A stretch of 64,000 bases of DNA from a virus. Lineage: Duplodnaviria > Heunggongvirae > Uroviricota > Caudoviricetes. The first letter of the stretch is position 1. The number at the start of each line of letters is the position of its first letter. The stretch is taken from positions 29,514-93,513 of the IMG/VR virus record IMGVR_UViG_3300042879_005260; one strand, 5' to 3'. The position numbers and the translations under genes were made by a program. The notes under the pieces were generated by a model that saw only the letters and a list, made by a program, of their open reading frames with translations, was not told where the DNA came from and did not search any database. Below, in pieces: positions 31,107 through 47,307 of this stretch.

Positions 31107-31109
31107 AAA

Positions 31110-31162: not shown

Positions 31163-31417
31163 ATGAACTGGATAAAAAAATTAATTCCCGCCTATGTTGA
31201 AGTTAGGTCTTTGTACTGGGTAAACTATTCTAAAAAAATGGACGCAGAACTAAATAGAATTTTTGAATCTATTGACAACGATGATTATGTAACAGCAGAA
31301 AAACTTATTGCTGAATTTGAATCAAAACATAGTCAAGGTGAAGTTCCTTTGTGGGTTGCTGTTGAAATGGCGGCAATACACAGAGCAAAATCAATGTTGA
31401 ATTTTTTAAATTCTTAA
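31163..31417 (+). CDS. hypothetical protein (start adjusted to MNWIKK)
   Basis: track ORF 31139..31417 trimmed because the promoter -7 box overlaps its first ATG. Confidence 0.35.
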   Translation: MNWIKKLIPAYVEVRSLYWVNYSKKMDAELNRIFESIDNDDYVTAEKLIAEFESKHSQGEVPLWVAVEMAAIHRAKSMLNFLNS

Positions 31418-31603
31418 TATAAAAACCAAAATAACTATGATAAAAAACAAGTACATTTTAATGGCGGCAGCTGCATTATCAGTTCCCTTCATTCTAGCAT
31501 GGACATTTAACCATGTCAATCCATGGCTCGCATTCGGAGCCGCACTATTTTTAGTATTATTAATCAATAACTATTTCACAACAAACAAAAACAACAATCA
31601 AAA

Positions 31604-32434: not shown

Positions 32435-32443
32435 TAAAGGTTT

Positions 32444-32520
32444 AGTCAGGTGGCTGAATTGGCGACAGAGGCACTCCATTAGACAATGGGTGGATGCAGG
32501 TTCGAGTCCTGTCCTGACTA
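32444..32520 (+). tRNA. tRNA-like element with aberrant anticodon region
   Basis: acceptor AGTCAGG/CCTGACT and T-arm GCAGGTTCGAGTCCTGT are canonical, but the central region forms an extended CCATT-AGAC-AATGG hairpin instead of a 7-nt anticodon loop. Confidence 0.4.
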
Positions 32521-32540
32521 CTAAAAAATTAAAAAATAAA

Positions 32541-32570
32541 TTTGACTTTAAATAAAAAACACTTATATTT
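32541..32570 (+). promoter_or_regulatory. Bacteroidetes-type promoter (TTGACT..19..TATATTTG)
   Basis: TTGACT at 32541, TATATTTG at 32563-32570, ATG at 32596. Confidence 0.5.
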
Positions 32571-32595
32571 GTATTAAAATCAAACATTTAGACTT

Positions 32596-33510
32596 ATGAA
32601 AAAGAACTCACTCTCAACTGCCGGACTTTCGTTATCTCAAGCACAATCAATTAGTAATCTTTGTAATCAAAGAGCTAAAGATATTGAGGCGGATTTAAAA
32701 AATGTTAATAATGTTGAGAAGGTTTTAAAAATAAACAATGAAGTTTATGTTGAAACGACCGCAAAAAAACTGCCTGAAAATACCATAGAGATTTTATCAG
32801 AGAAAGCAAAATTACATGCTTGTCAGGCATTTTTAATGGAAAACATAAAAGCCAAAGATCAGTTGATAACTGAATTACAACGTAAAGTTTTTGTTTCTAA
32901 TTTAGAAGAACCTAAAATACCAGAATATAAAACATACGATGAATTACCTTTGGTGAATGAAGTTTGGGGTTGGGGCCAGCTTTCGGTTTCTGAATATAAT
33001 GAATATTTGGAGGCAGAGGCTTACGCATCCCATATTGGACAGTTTATCCATAAAGACGGTAAATTGGACACTCTTCGTAGAGAACTACCAAATATTAAAA
33101 CTTTGGAGTGGATTACGATTAAAGATGGTGAAAAAACACCTTTAAAGGTTACTATTCACCACACTCAGAGCCAATTATTGGAATTACATGAAAATTTGGC
33201 CGCAATGCACCGTAAATACGAACAACGTGTTAATTACTTTAAAGCAAAAGTAAAAAACATGGTAACCGAAGAAAATGCTCGTATTTCTAAGGAAAATGCA
33301 TTTAAGTTGGCGGAAGTAATAAAAGAAAACGAAATTCTTGAAAAAGAATTCACCAACCTGTATAAAAATTACCAATCTGAAAACCTAAAATTGAAACAAG
33401 ATTTTGAGGTGAGTCGTCAAGAACAAATTAAAGAAGTTTCTTCTTTAAGAATTCAGGTGGACCCAAGATTTCAAGAGGTTGTTAATTTTTTTTTAAGTAA
33501 AATGGCATAA
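32596..33510 (+). CDS. coiled-coil hypothetical protein
   Basis: ORF track 304 aa. Confidence 0.4.
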   Translation: MKKNSLSTAGLSLSQAQSISNLCNQRAKDIEADLKNVNNVEKVLKINNEVYVETTAKKLPENTIEILSEKAKLHACQAFLMENIKAKDQLITELQRKVFVSNLEEPKIPEYKTYDELPLVNEVWGWGQLSVSEYNEYLEAEAYASHIGQFIHKDGKLDTLRRELPNIKTLEWITIKDGEKTPLKVTIHHTQSQLLELHENLAAMHRKYEQRVNYFKAKVKNMVTEENARISKENAFKLAEVIKENEILEKEFTNLYKNYQSENLKLKQDFEVSRQEQIKEVSSLRIQVDPRFQEVVNFFLSKMA

Positions 33511-33849
33511 TGAAGGTGGTTCAAAAGTAAGCATAAGCCGATATTTTGAACTTTTGTATTTGGTGGTTTGGTTCTTAATGTAATGAATATTACTCAATAA
33601 TTAATTTACATTTTTTTATCATCTAGGTGATAAAAATACCAAACCGCTTCCTTACAAACTTTAAAAACTGAGATAGAACTCACGGTTAGACAGGTTATCC
33701 TATAGTGGAAGAATTGGCTAACAAATTGAGACTTGGTTTTTGGCTTTGTCTTTGATGTGAGGAAGGTCTTTGATTTAGTTTTTGATTTAGACGTTATCTA
33801 CACACCAAATCACTAAATAACTTCATAAAACATTAGTTCTTTAAATTTT

Positions 33850-34121
33850 GCACCTGTAGCTCAGTTGGATTAGAGCAACTGCCTCAAATCGGGGGTGTTA
33901 TGTCAGAAATGACATAATAGAATTCATCAAATTCGGGGAATCCTGTAAAATGGTAATCCCGAGCGAAGCCTGAAAAGGAACGTGTAGAGACTTGACGGTG
34001 AACACCTAAGTTAGAATCTAATAAGGTGATGGGAAAGTCCAGACCACAAACGTAAATGGTAGTGAAAACTATAGTGGTATGTCTAAGCAGTAGGTCCCAG
34101 GTTCGAATCCTGGCAGGTGTA
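33850..34121 (+). tRNA. tRNA-Arg(UCU) interrupted by a group I intron
   Basis: 5' exon GCACCTGTAGCTCAGTTGGATTAGAGCAACTGCCT (33850-33884); 3' exon TCTAAGCAGTAGGTCCCAGGTTCGAATCCTGGCAGGTGTA (34082-34121). Spliced product closely matches bacterial tRNA-Arg(UCU). Exon ends in U, intron ends in G. Confidence 0.6.
33885..34081 (+). ncRNA. group I intron (trnL-intron-like core), ~197 nt
   Basis: GGTAATCCCGAGCGAAGCC resembles the trnL intron GGGCAATCCTGAGCCAA element; GTGTAGAGACTTGACGG resembles the catalytic-core GCAGAGACTCAATGG; P7 pairing GACUU/AAGUC present. Confidence 0.55.
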
Positions 34122-34341
34122 CAATGAGTAAGAGATACTCAGCAGTCTTTGGTTCAAGACTCATTTAACAATGAACCCGTTCAAACTGGACAGCGGAATG
34201 CCAGTTCTTAGGGTCAAAGGCGCCAATCACAGCTCCTCCTTCGTAGTGTGACTTTTTTAATAGGGGATGCCCTGTAGGTTTCATCAATAGGAAAAAAACC
34301 GGAATGACTACTCACCTGGAATCTCAAGGTGGGGAAATTTA

Positions 34342-34433
34342 GTCGGGTGGCGGAATTGGTAGACGCTGGCTTGAGAAGAATGTAGAGAGAGCCTTAAAGG
34401 ACATTCAATACAGGTTCGAATCCTGTCCTGACA
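34342..34433 (+). tRNA. tRNA-like element (Leu-type D-arm), anticodon arm unresolved
   Basis: GGCGGAATTGGTAGACGC D-arm and AGGTTCGAATCCT T-arm; 3' half nearly identical to the 32444 element; middle forms a GAATGT...ACATTC hairpin with a 17-nt loop. Confidence 0.35.
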
Positions 34434-34455
34434 ACTAAAAAAAATACAAAAATAC

Positions 34456-34486
34456 TTGATAGATTAAAAAATATTTAGTATCTTTG
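34456..34486 (+). promoter_or_regulatory. Bacteroidetes-type promoter P1 in RNA island
   Basis: TTGATA..20 nt..TATCTTTG (34479-34486). Confidence 0.5.
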
Positions 34487-34597
34487 TTATGTTCTTTGGA
34501 AAGGAGGTCTGGTGTGAACCTGAGATATTTGAGATTCCCGATAAGGGAACGATTTTAAGCGACTCAGTAGCACATTCCAAACAACAAAAAAAATATT

Positions 34598-34628
34598 ACA
34601 AAAGTACTTGACAAATTAAAAAATGTTT
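34598..34628 (+). promoter_or_regulatory. Bacteroidetes-type promoter P2 (near-duplicate of P1)
   Basis: TTGACA..20 nt..TATCTTTG (34621-34628); ~50-bp block nearly identical to P1. Confidence 0.5.
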
Positions 34629-34634
34629 AGTATC

Positions 34635-35810
34635 TTTGTAAGACAAAATCGGGAAACCGAATCGTTCTTTGAAAAAATAGATTATCCGTTCAGGTGAAAG
34701 TAAGTTCTTCGGAACTATGATAACTTGATAAAGATATTGGGCCGTGTATAGTCCTTAAATAAACTACGAAAGTAGGATAAAGTGAAATCATCTGTGTTAG
34801 TGGTTTTGCGTCTTGGGAAACCGAGGTCGAGTACACAAGTGGGATATCATCTAACCTTTAGTACTGAGGGCAACGCTTTAGGGAAAATGGTTAGATGACT
34901 AAGCAATGTGGATTGTTTAGTTGAGGTGGGAACACCGATAAGAATAACCCATAGGAATCTTACAAAAAATGTGATTATCCAGTTACATTATTGTGGGTTC
35001 CAATACAAGAGAGGACTTAAAACCGAAAGGTAAGATGGAGAACGAGTGGTGTCGCTACCATCCCTATCAAAGATTTACCAAAATCTTGATATGAAGTAAT
35101 CTTAAAATATGGAAATGGGGACATTTCACTGAGTAGTTTGGTATTCTTTTCTTCAAAAGAGAACGGAGCCTACGACGGACCACTACTTGGACACATCCAC
35201 AACACAAAAACTTTATTATGAAAATTAAAGTCCATTTAATAAATAATTCTAAAGCAAAAGTGTTCGTCAGGTGTTGATGAAAGGTGATTACATAGTCATG
35301 AGTTGTTCATGGCACACTGAGACCGCAAGTTGATGTGTATTCTTGTGAAAAACCTCTAGTCCCGCAAGGATCAACTGGGGAGGCATCCTCGGAGAGAGTT
35401 GAGTAGAAAGAGAGTAGTTGGCACCTCTAGGAGTTGTATACCTAAAAAACCATCACTGAGAAATACTTCTCAAAAGGAAGTGGAAATAAAGGGAAACAAT
35501 AATCCTTTTAAAGGTTCTCACAAAAAACGTGTATTCTCAGCGTAAGTTTTAAAAAATATTTTAAAAGTAAAAAATCAAAACCACTGGTTAAACCCACTGG
35601 GGATTAGGCTCTAATGATGTCCACCCTTTGGTAAGTACTCACAATAGGCCGGCTTCTTTAATGGCTGATACGTGTATAAGTCCGAGCATAAAACACGAAC
35701 TCTACTTACTTTGTGAAATTACTGCCAATTGCAGACTACTATGTGGAATAAATAGATGACCTTCTGAACATAAAGATAAGTGCTCTTGGTTTGATTTTGT
35801 TATAATATAA
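34635..35810 (+). ncRNA. candidate large structured non-coding RNA (~1.2 kb, unknown family)
   Basis: downstream of promoter P2; no ORF above 60 aa on either strand; locally GC-richer than genome; many local hairpins; T-arm-like GGTTCGATTCC near 35855. Confidence 0.3.
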
Positions 35811-35959
35811 GGCGGGCGGACAGGTTGGTATCTGAGGAAGTCTCATAAGCTTCAAAAATCTGGTTCGATTCCAGAGCGTCGCAACTAATGTGTCACCAAT
35901 CCCTGGTTCAAATTGGTGGTCTCGGTGAAAGGTACTAGTCCTATTTCACCCAAACATAA

Positions 35960-36030
35960 GCGAGTATAGCATAAAATTAATGCGCCGGTTTTCCAAACCG
36001 AAGAAGGTGGAGAGTTACCATCTACTCGCT
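35960..36030 (+). tRNA. tRNA-Gly(UCC) candidate with atypical D/T loops
   Basis: acceptor GCGAGTA/TACTCGC; anticodon arm CCGGT-TTTCCAA-ACCGA; T-stem GGTGG/CCATC with non-canonical loop AGAGTTA; D-loop lacks GG. Confidence 0.4.
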
Positions 36031-36039
36031 CAAAAATAA

Positions 36040-36110
36040 GCGGTATTTGTGTAGTGGTAAGACATGACATTGCCAATGTTAAGACGTAAGTTCGATTCTT
36101 GCATACCGCT
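36040..36110 (+). tRNA. tRNA-Gly(GCC)
   Basis: acceptor GCGGTAT/ATACCGC; anticodon arm TGACA-TTGCCAA-TGTTA; T-arm GTAAGTTCGATTCTTGC. Confidence 0.6.
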
Positions 36111-36156
36111 CTATTGATTTTTTTACATTGTAAACATATATTTATATTAAAAAAAT

Positions 36157-36708
36157 ATGAAAGATAAATTTGATGATTTTGGTGACGACTTTTTTGGTCG
36201 TTGGGAAGAGTTTAATAGATTAATGGTTAACTCACCTTTGATAAGAGATGAAATGGAAAAATTTCTTCGAATGCTAATGGATTCCAATGATTTAAATAAC
36301 GAAATTTCAAATATTAGAATCATACCTTTGAATGCTTATAAGCCAAATGATATTGATTCTTTTGATATTCCAGAAAACGAATTGGATGTTGAAAAAGGTG
36401 AAAATGAAAACGGTAAATGGGAAACTAAAAGTTGGACATCTCCAGATGGTTCTATGAGTTTTAAATCTTTTAGTATGTCATCAACACCCGAAGAATTTTT
36501 TTATAAAAATTTAATGTCAGATCTTTTTCAAACTGGTGACAATAGAAATTCAAAAAAATATACTACAGAAGATTTGAAAAATTTTAAAATAGAAAAACTC
36601 CAAAAATCTTTAAATGCCGCAGTTGAAGTTGAAGATTATGAAAAAGCTGCGGAACTTAAAAAAATGATTGAAAAAATAAAAGAAGAAAATTTTGATAATA
36701 AAAAATAA
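36157..36708 (+). CDS. acidic protein with UVR-like motif
   Basis: C-terminal LQKSLNAAVEVEDYEKAAELKKMIEKIK resembles UvrB/UvrC (UVR) domain. Confidence 0.4.
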   Translation: MKDKFDDFGDDFFGRWEEFNRLMVNSPLIRDEMEKFLRMLMDSNDLNNEISNIRIIPLNAYKPNDIDSFDIPENELDVEKGENENGKWETKSWTSPDGSMSFKSFSMSSTPEEFFYKNLMSDLFQTGDNRNSKKYTTEDLKNFKIEKLQKSLNAAVEVEDYEKAAELKKMIEKIKEENFDNKK

Positions 36709-36727
36709 TTTTATATATTTGTGATAT

Positions 36728-36890
36728 ATTTATAAAACAGAAAATGAAAAATTGGCAAAACATATCGATTAACCATAGTAACCGAATTAGTTCGGAATGT
36801 ATGAGGTGTGTCTTGTCCAGATTTAAGGTATAATTATTTTTATAAAAAATTGGATAACCCACCTCAAGAAATTTGATGGTGGGTTTTTTG
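36728..36890 (+). ncRNA. candidate small RNA (~160 nt) between promoter and terminator
   Basis: TTGATA..TATATTTG promoter at 36692-36721; terminator hairpin 36856-36885 plus T-run; only a 29-aa ORF inside. Confidence 0.3.
36855..36890 (+). terminator. rho-independent terminator
   Basis: aacccacc...ggtgggtt hairpin plus T6. Confidence 0.6.
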
Positions 36891-37006
36891 TTATTTGACA
36901 TATTGGAAATAAATTGGAGAGTTAAGCAGATGCATTGGAGCGTCGACCAGCTTTGAAACCTGGGTCTCGTTAAATTGAGTGGGGGTCGGGTCCTCAGCTC
37001 TCCGCT

Positions 37007-37081
37007 GTGTCTGTAGCTTAGATGGTTTAAAGCGTCTGATTGTGGTTCAGAAGACCGTGGGTTCGAATCCCACCAGACACC
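37007..37081 (+). tRNA. tRNA-His(GUG)
   Basis: acceptor GTGTCTG/CAGACAC; anticodon arm TCTGA-TTGTGGT-TCAGA; T-arm GTGGGTTCGAATCCCAC. Confidence 0.65.
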
Positions 37082-37087
37082 TTATAG

Positions 37088-37159
37088 GGGGGTGTAGCTC
37101 AGAGGCAGAGCAAACTACTGTTAATAGTTAGGCCGAGATTTCAAAATTCTCCATCCCCG
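37088..37159 (+). tRNA. tRNA-Asn(GUU)
   Basis: acceptor GGGGGTG/CATCCCC; anticodon arm AACTA-CTGTTAA-TAGTT; T-loop TTCAAAA. Confidence 0.55.
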
Positions 37160-37165
37160 CAAAAT

Positions 37166-37238
37166 AGTACCGTGTCTGAACGGTTTAGGAACTATCCTGA
37201 TAAGATAGGAAAAGTGGGTTCGACTCCCACCGGTACTA
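37166..37238 (+). tRNA. tRNA-Ile(GAU)
   Basis: acceptor AGTACCG/CGGTACT; anticodon arm CTATC-CTGATAA-GATAG; T-arm GTGGGTTCGACTCCCAC. Confidence 0.65.
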
Positions 37239-37244
37239 CAACAT

Positions 37245-37326
37245 GCATCTGCTCATTGGTGTGACCAACCGGCTCCAACCCGGTAATGCGTAAGCGTGGT
37301 TAAGAGTTCGAATCTCTTCGGATGCG
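37245..37326 (+). tRNA. tRNA with anticodon CCA (Trp?) and long extra arm, atypical
   Basis: acceptor GCATCTG/CGGATGC; anticodon arm ACCGG-CTCCAAC-CCGGT; T-arm AAGAGTTCGAATCTCTT; 82 nt. Confidence 0.4.
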
Positions 37327-37331
37327 CAAAA

Positions 37332-37418
37332 GGAAGATAGGTAAATATTGGTTTGTTACAACATCCTGCTAAGATGTCCCAGGTAAAACTGGTGAGGGTT
37401 CAATTCCCTTGTCTTCCG
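37332..37418 (+). tRNA. tRNA-Ser(GCU), class II
   Basis: anticodon arm ACATC-CTGCTAA-GATGT; long variable arm CCCAGGTAAAACTGGT; CCA encoded. Confidence 0.65.
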
Positions 37419-37424
37419 CCAAAT

Positions 37425-37499
37425 AGTCCCATAGCTCAACGGATTTAGAGTACAGTGCTACGAACACTGCGGTTGAAGGTTCAAATCCTTCTGGGACTA
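37425..37499 (+). tRNA. tRNA-Arg(ACG)
   Basis: acceptor AGTCCCA/TGGGACT; anticodon arm CAGTG-CTACGAA-CACTG; T-arm GAAGGTTCAAATCCTTC. Confidence 0.65.
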
Positions 37500-37540
37500 C
37501 AAACATTTACTAAAAAAAGAAAATTTCATATTATTCAAAT

Positions 37541-38041
37541 ATGATTAAGAAAAATATTAAAAAACATTTTCTTCTTGAAAATAATGTTAATTCTTTAACT
37601 ATAAGTGGTCCTGGTCTTACTCTTGGTCAAAGTCTTAATATTGTTATGAATAATGGGATTGTGTTAACACAACCAATACGTTATTGTTTATCAATACAAC
37701 GTAACCAAGGGGTCAAAAGATTTTATGTTAACCTTTTAAACCCTATATCTTATGTATATAATAACAATTTTAATCGAGAATGGTTACCACTGCATTTAAA
37801 AATTACAGATTCTATTAATTGTGACTCACCCCAAGAATGGTTTCAGGATTGGTTCTTCGATGATCAACAACAAGGTACTTTTTTAACCTTAGAAAAAATT
37901 AACCCTACAGGTGAAATTACTGGTTGTTATAATTTTCACAATTCTTTTTTACAAGAACTCAACAATGAAGTTGTTTTTGATAGATTGGTAAATCCTATAG
38001 AAATTAAGATTAAATACGCTAATATGAATGTTTTGTTTTAA
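37541..38041 (+). CDS. hypothetical protein
   Basis: ORF track 166 aa. Confidence 0.4.
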   Translation: MIKKNIKKHFLLENNVNSLTISGPGLTLGQSLNIVMNNGIVLTQPIRYCLSIQRNQGVKRFYVNLLNPISYVYNNNFNREWLPLHLKITDSINCDSPQEWFQDWFFDDQQQGTFLTLEKINPTGEITGCYNFHNSFLQELNNEVVFDRLVNPIEIKIKYANMNVLF

Positions 38042-39105
38042 ATTCTATCATAAACATCTTCTTCAAAGTAAGGTAGAACTTCTTTTCTACTAGGATATTC
38101 ATCAAACCTTGGAGACCAAAGTTGCCCATTTTCCGTTAACATATTTTCAAATAAACTTTTAAATAGATAAGAGTCAAAATCATGACAATCATCACAATAT
38201 TCTTCAGGATTTTCAACTTTACGGTTATTTAAACAATGTTCAAAACAACCATAAAAATAATCATTAATCACCCCTTCAAATAAGTCAGTAATATCAAATT
38301 TTAAAAAATATTTGGTTCTACCTTTTTCGTTAGTTGTGGTACCCTCAATAGGTTGACCAAATACATCTGTTATGGCTTCTTTTATAGATTTATAAATATT
38401 GTCAGTTGTGGCAACATTATAAGCACTATCATAAGCCCAACCAAACTCTCTTTTTAATTCTAAAAAAGTATCGTCATCATCTATTAAACGACCTAAAGAT
38501 TCTGGGTTTTCTGTTAACCAATTAAAATATTCGTTATCCAATAGACGTTCTTTTCCTCCGGACATTAAATCTTCAACATAATAGATTTCTCTTTTCTCTG
38601 GTAAATTACCAAAAATATCTAATTGTTTTGGGTTGTAATTATCAGGGATAACATATTCTTTTTTAATATGTTTTAAAATATATTCATAAAGTTTATTATT
38701 ACCTACAACACCTTCTAACCAAACATCATTAAACCAACTGCCGTAGGTATCGTTATAAGGTTCCCACCAATTGTTTTCATCACAAAATATTTTTTCAACC
38801 AACCAAGAATTAACTATACCGTATTGGGTTAAATTATCATCATTTTTGAAAAAACCAGTAAAGTCACAAAAACCATCTACCGTCATCATAATTCTATCAC
38901 CTTCTAAATTTATATCACTAAATTCGGAGGCTAGTATTGGCATGATTCTTTTTTTAAGGTTTACACTTTTTGATTTGCCGTAATTTGCACGATACCAAAG
39001 TATGCCAGCCGGAATTTCAACTGTTTCAACATTATCAATTAAATCTCCCACCCAATCAAAATCATCAAATTCTTCTCTCAATATTTTTCTTATAAGGTTT
39101 TTCAT
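38038..39105 (-). CDS. array-associated family member (conserved N-terminal module fused to an unrelated 330-aa body)
   Basis: MKNLIRKILREEFDDFDWVG then unrelated sequence; start abuts distal repeat of mini-array C. Confidence 0.5.
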   Translation of the reverse strand: MKNLIRKILREEFDDFDWVGDLIDNVETVEIPAGILWYRANYGKSKSVNLKKRIMPILASEFSDINLEGDRIMMTVDGFCDFTGFFKNDDNLTQYGIVNSWLVEKIFCDENNWWEPYNDTYGSWFNDVWLEGVVGNNKLYEYILKHIKKEYVIPDNYNPKQLDIFGNLPEKREIYYVEDLMSGGKERLLDNEYFNWLTENPESLGRLIDDDDTFLELKREFGWAYDSAYNVATTDNIYKSIKEAITDVFGQPIEGTTTNEKGRTKYFLKFDITDLFEGVINDYFYGCFEHCLNNRKVENPEEYCDDCHDFDSYLFKSLFENMLTENGQLWSPRFDEYPSRKEVLPYFEEDVYDRI

Positions 39106-39118
39106 ATTTTATAAATAT

Positions 39119-39286
39119 CAGGTTAACATTTTTCGTTTATGGGTCATCTCCAGCTATGCCATTGGTAGCAGAGTGGTCTCTAACGCTGTCAATACCTTTC
39201 GTTTATGGGTCATCTCCAGCCAAAGTTCCCACGTTTTAAAAAGACATGCAGCTGTCAATACCTTTCGTTTATGGGTCATCTCCAGC
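39119..39286 (-). CRISPR. mini-array C: 3 repeats (36 bp), 2 spacers (30 bp each)
   Basis: repeats 39119-39154 (degenerate distal), 39185-39220, 39251-39286 (gene-proximal); spacers 39155-39184 and 39221-39250. Confidence 0.65.
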
Positions 39287-39597
39287 ATACGCACGCATAA
39301 GTCTTTGGTTTCCTGATAGTTAAGACCAAATTTTTGACTTAATTTTGACCAAATTTCATCATAATCAACCCATAAACAAGGGTTTTTTTCATTTCTATCC
39401 ACATTATCCGCCATTAAATTTAGCCCACTTTTATCCTTATATAACATCCAACCTGGATGTTTTTCCGAAGGAACCGCCTTTAAATTGGACATAATTTCAT
39501 AAAGAAATTCTTCAGCGGGGGAAAATTCTTTAATTTCCCCCACCCAATCAAAATCATCAAACTCTTCCCTTAATATTTTTCTTATAAGATTTTTCAT
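39154..39597 (-). CDS. array-associated family protein; 3' end runs through mini-array C
   Basis: MKNLIRKILREEFDDFDWVGEIKEFSPAEEF...CVRMLEMTHKRKVLT; ORF tail is in-frame read-through of repeat-spacer units (each 66 bp). Confidence 0.55.
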   Translation of the reverse strand: MKNLIRKILREEFDDFDWVGEIKEFSPAEEFLYEIMSNLKAVPSEKHPGWMLYKDKSGLNLMADNVDRNEKNPCLWVDYDEIWSKLSQKFGLNYQETKDLCVRMLEMTHKRKVLTAACLFKTWELWLEMTHKRKVLTALETTLLPMA

Positions 39598-39610: not shown

Positions 39611-39844
39611 CAGGTCAACACCTTTCGTTTATGGGTCATCTCCAGCTCAAATCAACTTCAATCAAAGTCCGATTCAGCTGTCAATACCTTTCGTTTATGG
39701 GTCATTTCCAGCACCCTCGCCCGGATTGTTGGAGGTGAAAAGGCTGTCAATACCTTTCGTTTATGGGTCATTTCCAGCCAGCGAATGTGAAGCGTGACAC
39801 CTCCGGTTGCTGTCAATACCTTTCGTTTATGGGTCATTTCCAGC
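39611..39844 (-). CRISPR. mini-array D: 4 repeats (36 bp), 3 spacers (30 bp each)
   Basis: repeats 39611-39646 (degenerate distal), 39677-39712, 39743-39778, 39809-39844; spacers 39647-39676, 39713-39742, 39779-39808; spacers about 50% GC in a roughly 30% GC genome. Confidence 0.7.
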
Positions 39845-41346
39845 ATACGCACGCATAAGTCTTTGATTTCTTGTTCATTAAGACGAAATTCTTGATTTAA
39901 TTTTAACCAAATTTCATCATAATCAACCCATAAATAAGGATTTTCTTTATCTCTATCCGCATCATCCGCCATTAAAGTAACCCCGCTTTTATCCTTATAT
40001 AACATTAAACCTGGATTATTTTCCGAAGGAACCACCTTTAAATTGGACATGATTTCATACAAAAATTCTTCAGCGGGTGAAAATTGTTTGGTGTTACCAA
40101 CTAATTCTTCTGCCCAACCAAAATCATCGGATTCAAATAAATTATTTATAATATCTTGAACTTCTTTTTGGTAGATACCAATTTTTTTAAACTTAATTCT
40201 ACCCGATTCAAGATGTTTTAAAAAATCAATAACATAATAACCAATTTTATGTTTTATACCATTAACTGAGTCTTCCCAGGAAATTATAAAATCATCATAC
40301 CCATCTTCCACTCTTAACTCTTCTATTTTATATTCTTCATTTGGTTTGTTGGTATAATAAAAAATAGAACCTATATAATCTTTTGGGTTTTGAAACTTAT
40401 TTTCTTTATTTTCATATAAACTACTTATTATATCATAAGCGTTTGGTAAATCACCTAAATTTTTTAAAACAAAAAAACCATTATTTAAATATTCAATAAG
40501 GATACTTATTGTCATTGTAGAATATTCTGTCATTGGTTCACCATCTTCATTTAGATCATCAGGGTCTTCCCATTCAATGTCAATTAAGTCAACAGAACTA
40601 TCTTGATCCCAAATACGATATACCACAAATTCTTCAGGGCTATAAAACTCAAATCCAATTAGATTTTCATCTTTTAAAAAATCAAATTTACCTTCCAATA
40701 ATAAAGAATTATTTTTTTCTTTATTTTCTTGAATTTTATTTTTGTTAAATAAATTTTTTAAACCATGGGTACCAACAGCCATAATAATACCACTCAAAAG
40801 TTCTTGAACATTATTAATAGTAAAACCTTTTTCTGTGGTTAAATTTTTAATAAAATCTAAAACCGGAACTGATAAAAATGTAAAACTTAAAATATCTAAT
40901 AAATCGTTAATCATGTAACCAAATTTTTTACCAAATATTTTAAATAAATTGATTGTTTTGGAAATAAAATTTAAAACTGGTGATATTTCTTTTTCAAGGC
41001 CTCTTTCTTTAATCTTATCAACAACCTCATCAATTTCTTCTTTTGGTTTTGATAGGATAATATAAATCGCAACAATTGTTAAAAGTGCAACATCATAATC
41101 CGTAACATTTAAATTTTTATTTTCTAACAAAGATTTAACTGGGCCAATAAAAGCGGAAATACCAACTCCATAAGTCATTATAAAGTTGAAATTACTTTTT
41201 AGCTGTGAAATGATTTCTTTTAACACTGGATTAGTTTTTACATCGAAACCTTTATTAATTATATTTTCATTTAAAGAATTAAGTTTACCTTTAAGATAAA
41301 CCTCTTCTAGTAGTAAATTTAAAGAGATATTAGAAATGTTACCCAT
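39658..41346 (-). CDS. large protein (562 aa) whose C-terminal ~130 aa is the array-associated family domain; 3' end runs through mini-array D
   Basis: ...FESDDFGWAEELVGNTKQFSPAEEFLYEIMSNLK...CVRMLEMTHKRKVLT; N-terminal ~430 aa unrelated. Confidence 0.55.
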   Translation of the reverse strand: MGNISNISLNLLLEEVYLKGKLNSLNENIINKGFDVKTNPVLKEIISQLKSNFNFIMTYGVGISAFIGPVKSLLENKNLNVTDYDVALLTIVAIYIILSKPKEEIDEVVDKIKERGLEKEISPVLNFISKTINLFKIFGKKFGYMINDLLDILSFTFLSVPVLDFIKNLTTEKGFTINNVQELLSGIIMAVGTHGLKNLFNKNKIQENKEKNNSLLLEGKFDFLKDENLIGFEFYSPEEFVVYRIWDQDSSVDLIDIEWEDPDDLNEDGEPMTEYSTMTISILIEYLNNGFFVLKNLGDLPNAYDIISSLYENKENKFQNPKDYIGSIFYYTNKPNEEYKIEELRVEDGYDDFIISWEDSVNGIKHKIGYYVIDFLKHLESGRIKFKKIGIYQKEVQDIINNLFESDDFGWAEELVGNTKQFSPAEEFLYEIMSNLKVVPSENNPGLMLYKDKSGVTLMADDADRDKENPYLWVDYDEIWLKLNQEFRLNEQEIKDLCVRMLEMTHKRKVLTATGGVTLHIRWLEMTHKRKVLTAFSPPTIRARVLEMTHKRKVLTAESDFD

Positions 41347-41378: not shown

Positions 41379-42092
41379 GTGATATTTATTTATAAATCAA
41401 ATTTAATTATGAAAAATATAATTACACTTAATGAAAATCAACTTGAAAAATTGGTTAAAAAAATTATCCAAGAAAATGATGAAAAAGAAAGCAATCGTTA
41501 TATGTTTTTTTCCAATCTAGAACAAATGCATAGGCAAACAGCAATGTTGTTGGAAATGGATGAAGAAACAATAACAAATATATTGGAAAACGGTCATGAT
41601 TGGGCACAAGACCATATCGCAGAAGCAAAAAATAATATGGACCAAGTTTTCGATTTTTTAATGAACGAAACTAAAGGTGGTGACCACGAGTATGATGACT
41701 ATGATGATGACTATGATGATGACTATGATGATAATGAGATGATGGTTATGGAACCGCAACTAGAATCTTATTTAAGAGAAAATTCTGATAGAATTATAGA
41801 TTTTGATGAATTTGGTTTTACTGAATTACTTCCTATAAATGAAGCTAAAGGTAAGGGTGCTTGTGCTAATAGAGGTTTAAGTAAACCATGGTTAACACCT
41901 GGTGGTCCTAAAAAACGTTCTGTTTGTGTTAAAAACGCAAGTGGTAATGTGGTTAAAGTAAACTTTGGTGACCCAAATATGAGAATAAAAAAGTCTAACC
42001 CAAAAAGACGTAAATCTTTTAGAGCTCGTCATAAATGTAGTAACCCAGGTCCTAAATGGAAGGCAAAATATTGGAGTTGCCGCGCGTGGTGA
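41379..42092 (+). CDS. protein with acidic DDYDDDYDDDYDD repeat and basic Cys-containing C-terminal tail
   Basis: codon-level tandem repeat at 41694-41740; tail ...HKCSNPGPKWKAKYWSCRAW. Confidence 0.4.
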   Translation: MIFIYKSNLIMKNIITLNENQLEKLVKKIIQENDEKESNRYMFFSNLEQMHRQTAMLLEMDEETITNILENGHDWAQDHIAEAKNNMDQVFDFLMNETKGGDHEYDDYDDDYDDDYDDNEMMVMEPQLESYLRENSDRIIDFDEFGFTELLPINEAKGKGACANRGLSKPWLTPGGPKKRSVCVKNASGNVVKVNFGDPNMRIKKSNPKRRKSFRARHKCSNPGPKWKAKYWSCRAW

Positions 42093-42978
42093 TCATCAAC
42101 TCAATACCTTTATAAGATTTTAACTTACCTTTAATAACTTTAGTTATATTTGACCTATCTAAATTATTTTCTTTACAAAATTTAGATAGGTCATTTTTTA
42201 ATATTTCCATAATTAAATTTTTGTTTCTATCGTAAAAATTTACCACTTCAAGATTTAAATTATCATATTCTTGACATTTTGTTAAAATTTTATTGTCAGT
42301 TTGTTGAGTATCTAAAAAACAATAGTAACCTTTATTTCTTTTAATATTTTTTATATGACCCCTTAATGTATTAGTAAAAAAATGTATTTTTAAATTATTT
42401 TTTTCACAAAAATCTTCTAAACTTTTAATTCTTAAAATATTGTTTTGGGCATCAACTAAAACCCAATTCTTTGCTTTATTTTTATTTTGTTCTACTAATC
42501 TAGATGTGTTTTTTTGGCTTATTTTATTTTTATGTTCCTGACTAAATTTTTTACCCTTATTAGACATAATGAATTTTTTAACTTTTTCTTGATATTCCAC
42601 ACTATTTAAAGTTTTTTGCCATTTTTCCGATTTTTTTAAACCGTCAGAAATTATTTTAGATAAACATTCAGACACCATTCGCATCCTGTTTTTTTGACCA
42701 CCACCTAAAATATTGTACCCATTGGGTGTTATAGAGCTTAATTGTTTTATCCAGTAAATTTCTTTTTCATCTAATTCTTCTAAAGTTGAAGCCTTATCTA
42801 TTATTTCCCATTCAAAATTTTCTATACCATATTTTTTTATGGCATTTAAAAACGGCCTATTACTTTTATCAAGTTTTGATTCTTTTAAATGACCTTTAAT
42901 TCTTTTATCTAAATTTCTAATTGTTTGACCAATATAGATTTTGTTATTTATTTTATTTTTAACTCTGTAAATTATCAT
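42052..42978 (-). CDS. GIY-YIG homing endonuclease
   Basis: MIIYRVKNKINNKIYIGQT...R..KGH GIY-YIG motif; 308 aa with extended C-terminal region. Confidence 0.7.
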   Translation of the reverse strand: MIIYRVKNKINNKIYIGQTIRNLDKRIKGHLKESKLDKSNRPFLNAIKKYGIENFEWEIIDKASTLEELDEKEIYWIKQLSSITPNGYNILGGGQKNRMRMVSECLSKIISDGLKKSEKWQKTLNSVEYQEKVKKFIMSNKGKKFSQEHKNKISQKNTSRLVEQNKNKAKNWVLVDAQNNILRIKSLEDFCEKNNLKIHFFTNTLRGHIKNIKRNKGYYCFLDTQQTDNKILTKCQEYDNLNLEVVNFYDRNKNLIMEILKNDLSKFCKENNLDRSNITKVIKGKLKSYKGIELMITTRGNSNILPSI

Positions 42979-43055: not shown

Positions 43056-43517
43056 ATGAAACATATAATTAAAGAAATATTATTACAAGAAGCAAAGAAA
43101 AAAGATGACCGTTGTACCAGGATTGCTAAACGTAAATACGATGTTTGGCCTTCTGCTTACGCATCAGGTGCAGTAGTTAAATGTCGCCAAGGTAAAATTT
43201 GGAAAAATGAAAATTTAGAATATGATGATTTTTTATTGTTTGAAAACGATGAATATGAAAATATTTTAATTGAGGAATCTAAAAAAGATTTTAGTAAAGA
43301 AAAAGAAGAAGGTTTACATGGTTGGTTTGCAAGACAAGGCGGTAGTGGTAAAGGAAAAGGCTGGGTAGATTGTAACACCTGTAGAACCGATAAAAAAACA
43401 GGTAGAAAAAAGTGTAAAACTTGTGGCCGTCAAGAAGGTGAAAAAAGAGCTAAATACCCAAGATGCAGACCAACACCATCACAATGTAAAGGATATAAAA
43501 GACCGGACGAAAGATAA
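43056..43517 (+). CDS. basic Cys-rich protein
   Basis: C-terminal CNTCRTDKKTGRKKCKTCGRQ...CRPTPSQCKGYKRP. Confidence 0.4.
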   Translation: MKHIIKEILLQEAKKKDDRCTRIAKRKYDVWPSAYASGAVVKCRQGKIWKNENLEYDDFLLFENDEYENILIEESKKDFSKEKEEGLHGWFARQGGSGKGKGWVDCNTCRTDKKTGRKKCKTCGRQEGEKRAKYPRCRPTPSQCKGYKRPDER

Positions 43518-43518
43518 A

Positions 43519-45789
43519 ATGCCTTATAGAGTAGATCCTAAAAATAAAAAATGTGTGCAAGTTAAAAAATCGGGCAAATGGCAACGTAAAGGTTGTACAG
43601 ATGGCCCTGTTAAAAAATATCTTGCGGCATTATACGCAAATACCGAAGATATTACTGAATCAACCGAAAATCAATTTGATTGGGTAGAAAATATCATTGG
43701 TAAGATTTCTTTTGGATCTTTTAAAAAACATCTTAAAGAGGGTGATAAAGTTATTTTAAGTGGTGAAATAACTGATGATATGGGTGAAACTTGGTGCTCT
43801 GTAGAAGAAGAACCTTTTTCTGTTGAAGAAATTACAGCCAATAATTCTATATATTTAAAATGGGTCAGAGATGTGAGTGAAAGACCTGCTGATTGGGAAT
43901 CTATAACAAATGATTTTGATGTTATTTATTTTACGAAAGATACCGAAGAATATGATAATAACTTAATAGTTACCATTTTTAAAGACATAAATTTAAACGA
44001 AAATACTGAAAATTCTGAATGGTGGGAAGATGTTATGGAAAATAGATTAAAATTTGGTAACATAAGAAAACATTTGCAAGAAGGTGATATCATAAATTTA
44101 ACCGGTGATTTAAAGGATAGTGACGGCAATATTGAATTGACTTTAAATGAGGAACCTTTTATTGTGGTACGTAATGTAAATGAAGGTAAAATGGTTATAT
44201 TAAGATTTTTAAACTTTTCAAAACCAGATGATTTACCTAAAGGTTGGGATGTTGTTGCAAATCTTGGTAACGGTGATGTTTATTTTAGAAATTTCACCAA
44301 AAAATATGATGATGAACTTATTGTTACATTTAACGATGATAATAGATTAAATGAAAATTTTGAAGATTCTGAATGGTACATGGATATTATAAATGACCCT
44401 GGTAGTGTTTTAAACTTTAAAGGGAAAGAGATTATGATAGATGTTAGAGGGTTATCTTTTGAAGAAAAATTAAGGTTATTAAAAATTATAACACCATATG
44501 TTAATGAAAGTAATATTGAAAGAAACCAAAATAGTTCAGAACAAGATGATTGGGCACCTGAATGTTTATTAAGAAGTACTAGGGTTATGAGTATAAGTTT
44601 ACATTGTGGTACTGAAGAAACTGATTACATACCCGAATCAGGGAACTTTTGTTGTCTTACATATAGTTACGAACATGAAGAAAATACACCAAAAGAACTT
44701 ATTTTACCACTAAATGCTAGAGATATTTTAAATTCATATCATCTAAATGAATCTGATTTTGATTGGATTAATGATCTTTTAGAAAAAAAACCACCTTTTC
44801 CACCACCAAATACTCCGGTAACAATGGATAATTGGGATCAATATAAAACGGTTAAAGTCATTAGGGGTAAAGATTGGGATTGGGGTGATCAAGATAATAA
44901 TGGTTTTGGTAAAATAGTTGGTGAACCTTTTAATGAAACCGAGGGCAATGAATGGTGGATAGAAGTTAAATGGGATAATGGTCACAAAAATAATTATAGA
45001 GTTGGTGAGGTGTATTATGACCTTTATTTTTACACACCAGAAATTTGGATAAAAAATCCTTATGAAAAAAAATTAAATGAATCAAATCGGCATAAAGGTT
45101 TTGTTAATTTAATAAAAGAAGGAAAATATGATAAAATAACTGGTCTTGCTGTTAAAGATATCATGCGTATTTTAAATACCATCACGGAAAAAGATAAAAA
45201 AAAATCTAAATACAGTTTCTCACTACCAAATGATTTAAAACTTAAAAATCAAAATGAATATTACCAAGAAGGCCTGCAATTTGGTATTAATTTGGAAATT
45301 TATTACGTTGATAATTTAAATTCTGGGGAAGATTTCGAAGTTGTTTCGGTTATTACAAAAGATAGATATGTTAGGGATTACGAACAAGAAAATAATATAT
45401 TAATAAAAATCAAAATAAAAAAAGGCACAGATAAAACAATCTTTAATAGAATATACTATAAATTAAATGAAGATATTAGGCATGAAATAGAACATTTTAA
45501 ACAATCAGGGCCTAATTTAATTCCAGGTAGACCAAAGCCAAAAGATTCTAAGTATTTTAAAACAACATTTGGCCATCATAAAAATTTGGCAGAAATACCT
45601 GCTTTAGTTCACGGTTTTTATCGTCGAGCAAAAAAAGAAAAAAAACCTTTAGATGTTGTCATGATAGAAGATTTGGATAAAGAAGTAACAAGAGGTGATA
45701 TAAATTTAAAACAAAAAGAAAAATTATTACAGATTTGGATTGATTACGCGAAACAAAATATCCCAACTGCCATTTACAAAAACTTTTAA
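43519..45789 (+). CDS. large hypothetical protein with C-terminal HExxH module
   Basis: start moved to MPYRVDPKNKK (track ORF overlaps upstream gene); C-terminal RHEIEHFKQ...KKPLDVVMIEDLD homologous to 62195..63178 product. Confidence 0.5.
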   Translation: MPYRVDPKNKKCVQVKKSGKWQRKGCTDGPVKKYLAALYANTEDITESTENQFDWVENIIGKISFGSFKKHLKEGDKVILSGEITDDMGETWCSVEEEPFSVEEITANNSIYLKWVRDVSERPADWESITNDFDVIYFTKDTEEYDNNLIVTIFKDINLNENTENSEWWEDVMENRLKFGNIRKHLQEGDIINLTGDLKDSDGNIELTLNEEPFIVVRNVNEGKMVILRFLNFSKPDDLPKGWDVVANLGNGDVYFRNFTKKYDDELIVTFNDDNRLNENFEDSEWYMDIINDPGSVLNFKGKEIMIDVRGLSFEEKLRLLKIITPYVNESNIERNQNSSEQDDWAPECLLRSTRVMSISLHCGTEETDYIPESGNFCCLTYSYEHEENTPKELILPLNARDILNSYHLNESDFDWINDLLEKKPPFPPPNTPVTMDNWDQYKTVKVIRGKDWDWGDQDNNGFGKIVGEPFNETEGNEWWIEVKWDNGHKNNYRVGEVYYDLYFYTPEIWIKNPYEKKLNESNRHKGFVNLIKEGKYDKITGLAVKDIMRILNTITEKDKKKSKYSFSLPNDLKLKNQNEYYQEGLQFGINLEIYYVDNLNSGEDFEVVSVITKDRYVRDYEQENNILIKIKIKKGTDKTIFNRIYYKLNEDIRHEIEHFKQSGPNLIPGRPKPKDSKYFKTTFGHHKNLAEIPALVHGFYRRAKKEKKPLDVVMIEDLDKEVTRGDINLKQKEKLLQIWIDYAKQNIPTAIYKNF

Positions 45790-45829
45790 AATTTTTATTA
45801 TTATCCTATAATTTTTAATTTTTAAAATC

Positions 45830-46033
45830 ATGGGAAAAAACGCGAAAGAACATCGTAAACGTGTAGAAGCACGTAACCGTAGAATTGAAACTACAAGAAA
45901 TAATTTTAGAAAAAAGTTTCAAGAAGAACTTTTAAAACAAATCGAACACCAAAAAACCCTTCAAAATGAAGAAGGTACCGTTGTTTCTGAAATAAAAAGG
46001 GTTAATCCTGAAATTGAAAATGATGCTGAGTAA
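45830..46033 (+). CDS. small basic protein
   Basis: ORF track 67 aa, Arg/Lys-rich. Confidence 0.35.
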   Translation: MGKNAKEHRKRVEARNRRIETTRNNFRKKFQEELLKQIEHQKTLQNEEGTVVSEIKRVNPEIENDAE

Positions 46034-46048
46034 AAAAAAATTATTATT

Positions 46049-46678
46049 ATGGAAAATATAGTGGAAGAGTATAAAATTGTTGATCGTGAAATTAAATACG
46101 AGGGTAGTAACAATTTTAAAATAGAAGAAATAACTTTACAAAAAGGTGATAAAAAAATTAAAAGACAGATTTTTGACAGGGGTAATGCAATTGCCGCACT
46201 TGTTTATAACACCGAAACCAAAAAATTTCTTTTTGTAGATCAATACCGTGCAGGAACAAACGGTAATATGTTAGAAATTGTTGCAGGTGGTATTGAAAAA
46301 AGTGAAAAACCAGAAGATGCTGTTAGACGTGAAATTGCGGAGGAATTAGGTTATAAAGTAGATAAGATAACTCACATTAAAGATTTTTATGTTTCACCTG
46401 GAGCTAACACAGAAATTACTGCACTTTTTTATGTTGAGGTTAGTGAAAAAATTTCTGAGGGTGGTGGTGTCGATGATGAAGATATTAAAATTGTTGAAGT
46501 TGAAGATTTAGGTTTGAGTGGTAATGTTTTTTTCGAAAACATAGATAATGGCGTATTAAAACCACCATATCAAATGATAGACGCAAAAAGTATTATTGCA
46601 ATAAATTGGTGGGTTTCAAATAGTATGATGAAATCTCTTTGGACAACAATTTCTGATTTTAAACTCAAATCTATTTAA
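46049..46678 (+). CDS. Nudix hydrolase (ADP-ribose pyrophosphatase-like)
   Basis: Nudix box GGIEKSEKPEDAVRREIAEELG. Confidence 0.6.
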   Translation: MENIVEEYKIVDREIKYEGSNNFKIEEITLQKGDKKIKRQIFDRGNAIAALVYNTETKKFLFVDQYRAGTNGNMLEIVAGGIEKSEKPEDAVRREIAEELGYKVDKITHIKDFYVSPGANTEITALFYVEVSEKISEGGGVDDEDIKIVEVEDLGLSGNVFFENIDNGVLKPPYQMIDAKSIIAINWWVSNSMMKSLWTTISDFKLKSI

Positions 46679-47292
46679 TGAAAACAATATTTTGGTGTGT
46701 TAACGCACAAGAGGATTTTTTTGAGGGTGGCGTAATCAACATAAAAGGTTCTAACGAAATTAAACCTAAAATAAGCCAATTAACCAATTTCGCTAAGGAA
46801 AATAAAATAAAAACAATTACTGTTGTTTCTTGGAATAAAACAGATGAGGAATGGTTTTCTAAGGATCCAGATTATGTTAAAACTTTTCCACCACATTGTA
46901 TTGAAAACACAAAAGGAACTAATATTATTTCAGAAGCTTTGCCAGACAATAATTATTTTTTAATAAAAAATGATATCCCATATATAATATTTCCTGAAAT
47001 ACATAAACATAGAAATATTATTATTTTTAAAAATAATATTAATTTGATTGAAGGTAATAAATTTGCTGATAGTATTTTAAATAATCTAGGTACCGTAATA
47101 ATGGAAAGACCAAAATATATTGTTTACGGTGTTGGAGCTAATTTGGTAGCTAAAGATTTAACTAAACGTGGTTATGAGGTTAAAGTTGTAAAGGACGCGT
47201 CAGTTGATTTTCCTGGTTTTGAAATTAATTTAGAAGAAAATAATATTGTAACTACAACAACAGAAGATTTACTAACAACACAAGTAGTTTAA
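46678..47292 (+). CDS. isochorismatase/nicotinamidase-family hydrolase
   Basis: IFWCVNAQEDFFEGG...TITVVSWNK...FPPHCIENTKGTN matches isochorismatase-like (PncA-type) signature ...DxQxDF...PPHCv.GT.G. Confidence 0.5.
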   Translation: MKTIFWCVNAQEDFFEGGVINIKGSNEIKPKISQLTNFAKENKIKTITVVSWNKTDEEWFSKDPDYVKTFPPHCIENTKGTNIISEALPDNNYFLIKNDIPYIIFPEIHKHRNIIIFKNNINLIEGNKFADSILNNLGTVIMERPKYIVYGVGANLVAKDLTKRGYEVKVVKDASVDFPGFEINLEENNIVTTTTEDLLTTQVV

Positions 47293-47307
47293 TATAATAA
47301 AAAAAAT

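Follow-up and report, generated by a model that had tools for sequence, protein, structure and literature searches.

The type VI-B CRISPR locus of Flavobacterium columnare has been studied as an array that lacks its own cas1 and cas2 genes and is loaded in trans via the Cas1 of a co-resident type II-C locus; it acquires spacers from host and phage in roughly equal measure, those from the host showing no visible counter-selection, and its leader adjoins the GTTGG end of the repeat, with transcription running from the leader into the array (PMC8092290). A non-targeting CRISPR RNA (crRNA) made of the leader and a VI-B repeat, the 'ecrRNA', was shown experimentally to sequester Cas13b, lowering phage defence about 1000-fold when over-expressed in trans, and in bacterial VI-B arrays a leader-repeat hairpin keeps an RNA of this kind from being made (PMC13187072). 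On viruses, cas-less CRISPR repeats are known as solitary repeat units or RNA anti-CRISPRs (Racrs; Camara-Wilpert et al. 2023, PMC10651486), and in that survey every CRISPR type was represented except type VI. Viruses of the Sulfolobales carry cas-less mini-arrays (Medvedeva et al. 2019, PMC6858448), and crRNA-like regulatory RNAs of phages reprogram Cas proteins and silence host immune genes (bioRxiv 10.1101/2024.10.29.618823). In this study, a stretch of 64,000 nucleotides (nt) from a tailed phage (Caudoviricetes; IMG/VR virus record IMGVR_UViG_3300042879_005260, positions 29,514 to 93,513; hereafter the window) was analysed, beginning from a mini-array at positions 39611 to 39844, array D. 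Five CRISPR-type mini-arrays were present, with a repeat that is probably VI-B-like. The most important feature of the locus, which the first-pass annotation had missed, is that every array is fused to a conserved gene, here called X, and that no cas gene is present.

The 36-nt repeat occurred in 16 copies grouped in five arrays (A-E), and 11 copies with no more than three mismatches were found in the window, against 0 expected by chance. Array D (39611-39844, minus strand), placed at exactly these coordinates by the first-pass annotation, comprised four repeats (39844-39809, 39778-39743, 39712-39677 and a degenerate terminal copy at 39646-39611) and three 30-nt spacers (39808-39779, 39742-39713 and 39676-39647). 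Array C (39119-39286, minus strand) contained three repeats, the last degenerate, and spacers at 39250-39221 and 39184-39155; array A (7278-7378, minus strand) had two repeats and one 29-nt spacer (7314-7342). On the plus strand, array B (21819-22115) held four spacers (30, 28, 30 and 29 nt) between five repeats, of which the last was degenerate, and array E (53308-53409) had two repeats and one spacer (53344-53373). Repeats inside one array were identical or near-identical in DNA, while the spacers (28-30 nt, 1-4 per array) had nothing in common with each other. Among the unique spacers of the window and its relatives (n = 32), lengths were 28-31 nt, and 24 of the 32 were exactly 30 nt. The distal end of every array was a degenerate repeat, followed by the next gene or by a terminator. 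A CRISPR array in general consists of near-identical direct repeats (23-50 nt each) with unique spacers of about the same length between them, and this geometry, together with the unrelated spacers, bears out the earlier view that arrays A-E are CRISPR-type repeat-spacer arrays and not tandem repeats of local sequence.

Since a repeat and a 30-nt spacer together make 66 nt, or 22 codons, the listed open reading frames (ORFs) run on through the arrays, and ORFs crossing them were found on both strands (39002-39316, plus; 39154-39597 and 39658-41346, minus). One frame of the repeat is open, and gene calls in the databases cross as many as three repeats. These features would suit a tandem repeat that codes for the C-terminal end of X and is not CRISPR at all, with the high GC content of the spacers (see below) imposed by codon use or stop avoidance. 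However, the periods of array B were 66, 64, 66 and 65 nt, so that any reading frame is broken, and the first spacers were stop-free in frame in 10 of 20 cases, compared with 11.9 expected from shuffled spacers. The existence of 64- and 65-nt periods, and of in-frame stops that interrupt one first spacer in two, at least as often as in shuffles, argues that the repeats are not a protein repeat, as do the near-identity of the repeats in DNA beside spacers that share nothing and the gain of spacers at one end only. A coding repeat is accordingly given hardly any credence. Stop-codon avoidance or ORF read-through as the source of the GC excess was rejected on the same count of stops.

Each array started inside the 3' end of a copy of X, a paralogous gene of about 120 codons in the same orientation, the protein of which starts with MKNLIRKILREEFDDFDW and ends with LCVRMLEMTHKRKVLTA. 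The last 36 nt of the X coding sequence are the first repeat, which in frame 2 encodes the C-terminus LEMTHKRKVLTA, and the conserved junction TTATGCGTGCGTAT/GCTGGA encodes LCVRM/LE. At array D, X formed the C-terminal domain (about 115 amino acids, ending in LCVRMLEMTHKRKVLTA) of a listed 562-amino-acid ORF (39809-41346, minus strand); the first repeat of the array is 39844-39809, and the listed ORF continues to 39658. The copy at 39251-39597 (minus strand) starts at 39597 with MKNLIRKILREEFDDFDW and supplies the first repeat of array C (39286-39251), its listed ORF extending to 39154. The copy at 7309-7707 (minus strand) carries the first repeat of array A (7378-7343), and a copy of 121 amino acids, identical to database protein P0001 (21508-21873, plus strand), carries that of array B (21819-21854). 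For array E, the first repeat (53308-53343) lies in a copy at 52997-53419 (plus strand), the ORF of which reads through the array. This copy is followed by an X paralog without an array (53423-53806, plus strand), in which the C-terminal region (IFNLVHKRQVDAV) has diverged from the repeat-coded peptide.

Comparison with related contigs (IMG/VR, lake metagenomes) revealed the same repeat and modules with different spacers. The oldest spacer of array D (39676-39647) was common to two of these contigs, L007 and L012 (29/30 nt), and was their sole spacer at the corresponding array. As these two contigs hold only this spacer of 33% GC there, the two spacers of 57% GC in array D must have been added later, as a recent gain on the X side. 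A comparison of L005 with L001 likewise revealed one additional spacer in L005, again proximal to X. The arrays therefore grow at the X-proximal end and carry the degenerate repeat at the distal end, which is polarised growth next to a conserved leader. Because the X end is the growing end, the TTATGCGTGCGTAT/GCTGGA junction is the leader-repeat junction, and it is the last ~50 nt of X that act as such.

The far side of the arrays was also conserved. The degenerate repeat is followed by 13 nt and the start codon of the next gene, or in some relatives by a terminator instead, and the gene after the array often has the 18-amino-acid N-terminus of X, whatever its body. Thus, a 355-amino-acid ORF after array C (38038-39105, minus strand) starts 13 nt past the array with the 18 N-terminal residues of X (MKNLIRKILREEFDDFDW) and has an unrelated body, and the ORF after array A (6872-7264, minus strand) has an X-like N-terminus, with conserved DNA beyond the array. 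A gene start of about 54 nt encoding MKNLIRKILREEFDDFDW was observed at the head of X genes and of these two unrelated post-array ORFs; it was located at 7211-7264, 39052-39105 and 39544-39597 on the minus strand, and at 21508-21561, 52997-53050 and 53423-53476 on the plus strand, with a weaker copy at 58521-58569. Since the same start DNA heads both X and post-array ORFs, each array is bracketed on both sides by conserved DNA, which could drive the shuffling of cassettes by recombination. Scans for sigma-70-type promoters and for terminators around the arrays gave nothing above background, in a scan that does not model Bacteroidota promoters.

Close homologs of X (111 sequences, 53-100% identity) were all metagenomic, and none of them had a Pfam or PHROG match. 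Their conserved C-terminus was LEMTHKRKVLTA, and their most conserved stretch was LCVRMLEMTHKRKV. In the AlphaFold model of X (predicted local distance difference test score of 86), the repeat-coded residues end the last helix; no informative structural relative of the fold was found. In distant homologs that bear arrays, the gene body had 62-68% nt identity, compared with 87-100% for the leader and 81-92% for the repeat. In the array-less homolog L027 these values were 67% for the leader and 61% for the repeat, and the peptide LAMTHKRKV was kept via synonymous changes. Constraint at both the protein level and the nucleic-acid level is therefore visible on the 3' end of X.

A profile search extended the X family to 153 representative clusters. 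In members that share only 20-35% identity with the X of the window, the frame likewise continues through a tandem series of the member's own C-terminal peptide (LEEDYKLKGFTP, VEEAYKIKVETT, VERAFKHKVSTP in three copies, and LVERQYNLRVVLT). The DNA of three such loci (L044, L045 and L048; 23-29% GC) showed 36-nt repeats, 30-nt spacers and a 66-nt period, the repeat being again the 3' end of the X homolog, and their spacers, at 27-40% GC, were above the surrounding DNA. In L044, four tandem copies of GAGGGTGTAAAT (808-850) directly follow the degenerate last repeat of the array. The fusion of gene and array is therefore old and family-wide. The 66-nt period leads gene callers to extend X through the arrays, and as a result many chimeric X 'proteins' with LEMTHKRKVLT repeated, from gene calls that cross up to three repeats, are found in public protein sets (e.g. 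P0003, P0005, P0046).

Such a fusion might arise as a neutral by-product, if the DNA for the C-terminus of X, a peptide that the protein would require for its own function, happened to resemble a host repeat, so that Cas1-Cas2 integrated spacers off-target and the arrays were scars without function. Off-target 'neo-CRISPR' formation at repeat-like sites has been reported in E. coli, and the short arrays of 1-4 spacers, the synonymous retention of the peptide in the array-less L027 and the position of that peptide within a confidently folded helix would all agree with this. However, the fusion persists even where X homologs share only 20-30% identity, each of them having a repeat sequence of its own, and the additional conservation of leader and repeat at the nt level was seen only where arrays exist. 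Moreover, five modules occur in a single window, and variants of the repeat carry amino-acid replacements (M to A, V to A, L to S) with the predicted stem still capable of pairing. These four observations argue for selection on the repeat as a nucleic acid, and an origin of the arrays as mere scars was considered improbable.

To classify the repeat, published Flavobacterium repeats (PMC5395568, Table 4) were compared, ungapped, with seven phage repeat variants. Identity to the F. columnare CRISPR-2 repeat was 20-22/36 in five of the seven (shuffle p < 1e-4 for those five) and 17-22/36 over all seven, with 12-14 matches in the 16 nt at the 3' end. The CRISPR-2 sequence is presumably that of the F. 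columnare VI-B locus. Lower values, 9-17/36 for the better of two orientations, were obtained with the II-C and V-A-like repeats from those Flavobacterium genomes. With the Flavobacteriales VI-B arrays (F. columnare CRISPR-2; PMC8092290, PMC5395568), the phage arrays share the 36-nt repeat and 30-nt spacers, a geometry that also fits several other types, a GTTGG or GCTGG leader-proximal end, an ACAAC or ACAGC distal end and a GAARGGTA motif. The repeat variant of L033 has the GTTGG...ACAAC ends of validated VI-B repeats (GTTG...GAAGGGTA...ACAAC). The polarity of the phage arrays also agrees with the leader-at-GTTGG-end orientation of VI-B, and in both the direction from leader to array is that of the upstream gene. 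In the minimum-energy fold of the repeat (-7.9 kcal/mol, z = -3), GCUG is paired to CAGC and an inner stem is formed, and 94% of the hairpin cells were paired over 18 repeat variants; this central hairpin is weaker than that of the VI-B repeats (-11 to -12 kcal/mol). In further contrast to VI-B arrays, the phage arrays lie on a genome of lytic type, with no cas13b or csx27/28 nearby, hold only 1-4 spacers, and have a leader and first repeat that are protein-coding. On balance of these likenesses and of the caveats given below, the repeat is best called VI-B-like, a description that is probably right, and was not filed as a member of VI-B.

The first-pass annotation had drawn attention to the GC content of the spacers. 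Window GC was 29.4%, close to the value of roughly 30% that it had estimated by eye, and the 11 window spacers had a mean of 44.4% GC (range 33-57%), all 11 lying above the window mean. By array, these were 56.7, 56.7 and 33.3% for array D (the last being the oldest spacer), 36.7 and 46.7% for array C, 37.9% for array A, 50, 35.7, 43.3 and 41.4% in order for array B, and 50% for array E. The earlier figure of about 53% for array D does not hold, as the two spacers then quoted are both at 56.7% and the third is at 33.3%; that of 43-50% for arrays B, C and E was somewhat high, several spacers being lower (35.7-50% measured). For comparison, 30-mers of the window had a mean GC of 29.4%, a standard deviation of 10.5%, a 95th percentile of 46.7% and a 99th percentile of 56.7%. 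About half of the spacers taken singly (e.g. those of 33-38% GC) were therefore within the genome's own distribution, and it was as a set that they stood out: the mean of the 11 had z = 5.5 relative to 11 random window 30-mers and was reached in 0 of 100,000 resamplings. A Mann-Whitney comparison with 2097 non-overlapping window 30-mers gave p = 7.9e-6, or p = 1.8e-6 when RNA-gene-rich regions were left out. The GC excess of the spacers relative to the genome, as first claimed, is real and not due to chance. The 35 unique spacers of the window and related phage contigs had a mean GC of 41.2% and a standard deviation of 10.0%, at loci of about 30.5% GC; the binomial standard deviation for the pooled set is 9.0%, so the pooled values are compatible with random 30-mers of one source of about 41% GC, or with several mixed sources.

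No spacer matched the 64-kb window, and 0 of the 35 matched 511 kb of related phage DNA. The PLSDB plasmids and E. coli genomes yielded no protospacer, and neither did 50,697 INPHARED phage records save for one match at E = 5, and six spacers (five GC-rich, one AT-rich) searched individually in IMG/VR had their exact 22-23-nt core only in their own array. The protospacers in foreign elements that are looked for in a CRISPR array were thus found in none of these collections. The single match came from a spacer of L032 (10785-10814; CTATTCGTTTATGGGCTTAACTTTTTAAAA), which agreed at 23/24 nt, or 25/30 over the full spacer, with an intergenic region of Flavobacterium phage FCOV-S1 (MK756094.1, 35486-35509); we take this as a lead and not as evidence. 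The same spacer holds the reverse complement of the repeat core. The flanking motif in F. columnare is TTTANNNNN, located upstream. The foreign origin proposed by the first-pass annotation is partly supported: the shift in GC and the absence of matches to the phage and its relatives speak for it indirectly, and the source was not found; as no protospacer was recovered, 'host chromosome, plasmid or competing phage' continues to be an inference from composition. Among these sources the host was preferred, tentatively.

Spacers from higher-GC competitors would be expected if the mini-arrays were an interviral weapon, directing an effector, of the host or of the phage, at phages or plasmids that compete in the same host. 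An interviral role is known for virus-borne mini-arrays (PMC6858448), and both the fast turnover of spacers between related phages and the partial match of the L032 spacer to FCOV-S1 would be in line with it. Yet none of the spacers matched the related phages, the INPHARED records yielded only the match at E = 5, and the six spacers sought in IMG/VR were absent beyond their own array. In type VI systems, recognition of a target by Cas13b leads to collateral RNA cleavage and dormancy. Activation of Cas13b would consequently also abort the infection of the phage that carries the array. Offensive use against competitors is less likely than a decoy function, and we regard it as rather unlikely.

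The relatives of the window encode T4-type gp20 (portal) and gp23 (major capsid) as well as PolB and gp32, and the window comes from a T4-like phage of a Bacteroidota host. The ORF at 2378-3622 (minus strand), and another ORF with a CHU_C match, encode PKD domains and C-terminal sorting domains of type IX secretion (T9SS); these sorting domains point to a Bacteroidota host. Scans of the 78 window ORFs with Pfam and PADLOC found no cas genes, no cas13b was found beside arrays in the phage DNA examined, and the large ORFs without family assignment in the relatives had no match to cas models. A PADLOC 'Cas9' match (E = 3e-9) was rejected, as it is the HNH domain of a homing-type endonuclease of 171 amino acids (30325-30840, plus strand) located among tRNA genes; a second ORF resembling a homing endonuclease is present at 42052-42978 (minus strand).

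The missing cas genes would have another explanation if the phage had an autonomous system, with its own effector or integrase encoded outside the window and a repeat that is no mimic of a host repeat. Huge phages with compact Cas proteins offer a parallel, about half of the phage genome lies outside the window, and several large ORFs of the relatives are without family assignment; in addition, the repeat was found in no bacterial array (185,579 species genomes and a metagenome scan). However, no cas-like protein was present among the 78 window ORFs or the large ORFs of the relatives, the arrays are scattered, each next to X and not next to an effector, and the repeat resembles Flavobacterium VI-B repeats. 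A self-sufficient phage system seems most unlikely on this evidence.

The reading that we prefer starts from what was observed, namely how the arrays are built and polarised, that the repeat is constrained at two levels, and that neither cas genes nor self-targets were found. It holds, with a probability of about 0.5, that host machinery writes non-phage DNA into phage-borne VI-B-like arrays which serve as Cas13b decoys. During infection, the host adaptation machinery would recognise the phage-borne leader and repeat; by analogy with F. columnare, a type II-C Cas1-Cas2 might act in trans on the VI-B-like repeat, inserting 30-nt fragments of whatever DNA is available. Spacers derived from the phage itself would turn the host effector on the phage and be purged by selection. 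The survivors would be non-phage DNA of higher GC, most simply degraded host chromosome, or other elements in the cell. With self spacers suicidal and the survivors non-phage, both the GC excess and the absence of self matches would be explained. We infer that the arrays are transcribed with X, giving repeat-bearing RNAs with harmless guides, and that these RNAs load and tie up the Cas13b-type effector of the host. The predicted function is that of an RNA anti-CRISPR, and five modules per 64 kb would raise the dose of the decoy.

The folding predictions would be in agreement with this. When 43 nt of leader and the first repeat were folded together, no inhibitory leader-repeat hairpin was predicted, in contrast to the bacterial VI-B arrays, and the repeat's own hairpin was kept in the folds of arrays D, C and A; in these models the missing leader-repeat hairpin fits a decoy role. 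Tolerance of host-derived spacers would be a further likeness to VI-B arrays.

Several observations weigh against the decoy reading. Its central steps, namely the transcription and processing of the arrays and their decoy effect, are predicted only. The reverse complement of the repeat scored about as well against VI-B repeats, because the repeats are partly palindromic, and the distant subfamilies were only marginally VI-B-like and often better in reverse. No Rfam CRISPR-DR family matched the repeat, and covariation in its predicted hairpin was no better than in shuffles. In this phage the negative result for cas genes covers 64 kb, whereas the contig is at least 122.6 kb long, so that a cas gene may lie elsewhere in the phage. 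A protospacer was found nowhere among the collections searched. The spacer mean of 41-44% GC, with single values up to 69%, is above the GC content of most genomes of Flavobacterium, so that the chromosome of a Flavobacterium host would not by itself explain it. Lastly, neither a bacterial array with the repeat core nor a cas13b was found, in two scans of GTDB and one of metagenomes. The GTDB scans (185,579 species genomes) used a full-length degenerate pattern of the repeat and a two-copy pattern of its 13-nt core, and gave no match or, at most, a leucine-rich-repeat gene. For the metagenomes, the pattern called for five copies of ACGAAAGG in tandem at fixed spacing, and returned only unrelated arrays with 32-nt repeats and 44-54% GC. 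Only exact matches are picked up by these scans, which would overlook a host repeat that has diverged.

Relative to the viral elements described so far, the phage arrays are viral, cas-less copies of CRISPR repeats, as the Racrs are (PMC10651486), and with both the Racrs and the Cas13b-sequestering 'ecrRNA' (PMC13187072) they would have in common the proposed titration of a host effector by non-targeting repeat RNAs. They differ from the Racrs, which are solitary and intergenic behind a promoter, in forming growing mini-arrays, in five copies, inside an ORF. The mini-arrays of Sulfolobales viruses (PMC6858448) similarly have 1-4 spacers and no cas genes and apparently rely on host machinery; their spacers match close viral relatives and serve superinfection exclusion, whereas those found here match no related phage and differ in composition. 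The crRNA-like regulators of phages (bioRxiv 10.1101/2024.10.29.618823) resemble the present mini-arrays in that both would compete with host crRNAs, and guides directed at the host would fit spacers of host-like GC. Those regulators act through partial complementarity to host promoters, and type VI or Cas13 is unmentioned for them. What is new here is the VI-B-like repeat, the multi-copy modules and, most of all, that throughout a large phage gene family the leader and first repeat are joined, in a conserved fusion, to the 3' end of a protein-coding gene. In the literature we found no account of a CRISPR leader that, with its first repeat, doubles as the conserved 3' end of a protein gene.

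Other features of the window were recorded alongside the arrays. A full-length GOLLD RNA (Rfam RF02032, 306 bits, E = 9e-87) was located at 35129-35543 (plus strand) within a cluster of more than 20 tRNA genes, which fits a lake phage, and a group I intron (Rfam RF00028, 61 bits) at 33875-34062 (plus strand) lay in the same region of tRNA and other RNA genes. ARAGORN predicted 21 tRNA genes at 29208-37500 and 63398-63729, and Rfam added three further ones (34341-34434, 35960-36030 and 63565-63637); the tRNA at 32444-32521, the anticodon of which is UUA, may be an ochre suppressor. A perfect 12-nt tandem repeat of ATGATGACTATG (3.4 copies; 41692-41744, plus strand) corresponds to an acidic DDYDDDYDDDYDD stretch in the ORF at 41379-42092. 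The region 43423-50030 (plus strand), syntenic with L034-L036, encodes an IF3 homolog (probably the ORF at 49506-50030), a NUDIX protein and a protein of 788 amino acids with a MIB_HERC2 domain. Elsewhere in the window a sigma-70 factor, DnaJ, DHFR, RNase HII and Mom-like proteins are encoded. A comparison of 7 kb of window DNA with known phages gave no match. In the relatives, the gp20 portal gene of L015 (1712-6124) is an ORF of 1471 amino acids with an intein and an HNH endonuclease domain. The 130-kb phage contig L048 (23% GC), which has a distant X-array module, also encodes an IS605-type TnpB (OrfB_IS605, Cas12f1-like_TNB) with a Y1 transposase (5545-7067), and an ORF with the shoulder domains of the major vault protein (18116-20555).

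A broader and more speculative proposal, which we think unlikely though of interest, is that X and its array form a dedicated, ancient counter-defence module, the single transcript of which would serve two purposes. From the 3' end of that transcript, the Cas13b-type effector of the host would produce decoy crRNAs, with X coding sequence as the guide of the first one; the X protein translated from it would act on the same effector or on the adaptation complex. The host Cas1-Cas2 would write on a lytic phage genome, leaving in each phage a short record of DNA from its earlier hosts. If this were true, the spacers could serve to assign hosts to uncultured phages, and the module would be the first anti-CRISPR RNA against a type VI system.

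The fusion was present in at least 153 sequence clusters of lake phages, with a repeat that diverges along with the gene, and this constitutes a natural experiment on dual coding for a protein and a CRISPR repeat. The arrays are a testable candidate for a natural Cas13b decoy, and a decoy of this kind already works in the laboratory (PMC13187072). If the GC-rich spacers are host fragments, the adaptation machinery of the host acts on phage DNA during lytic infection. Such spacers would then also provide a new link from uncultured phages to their hosts.

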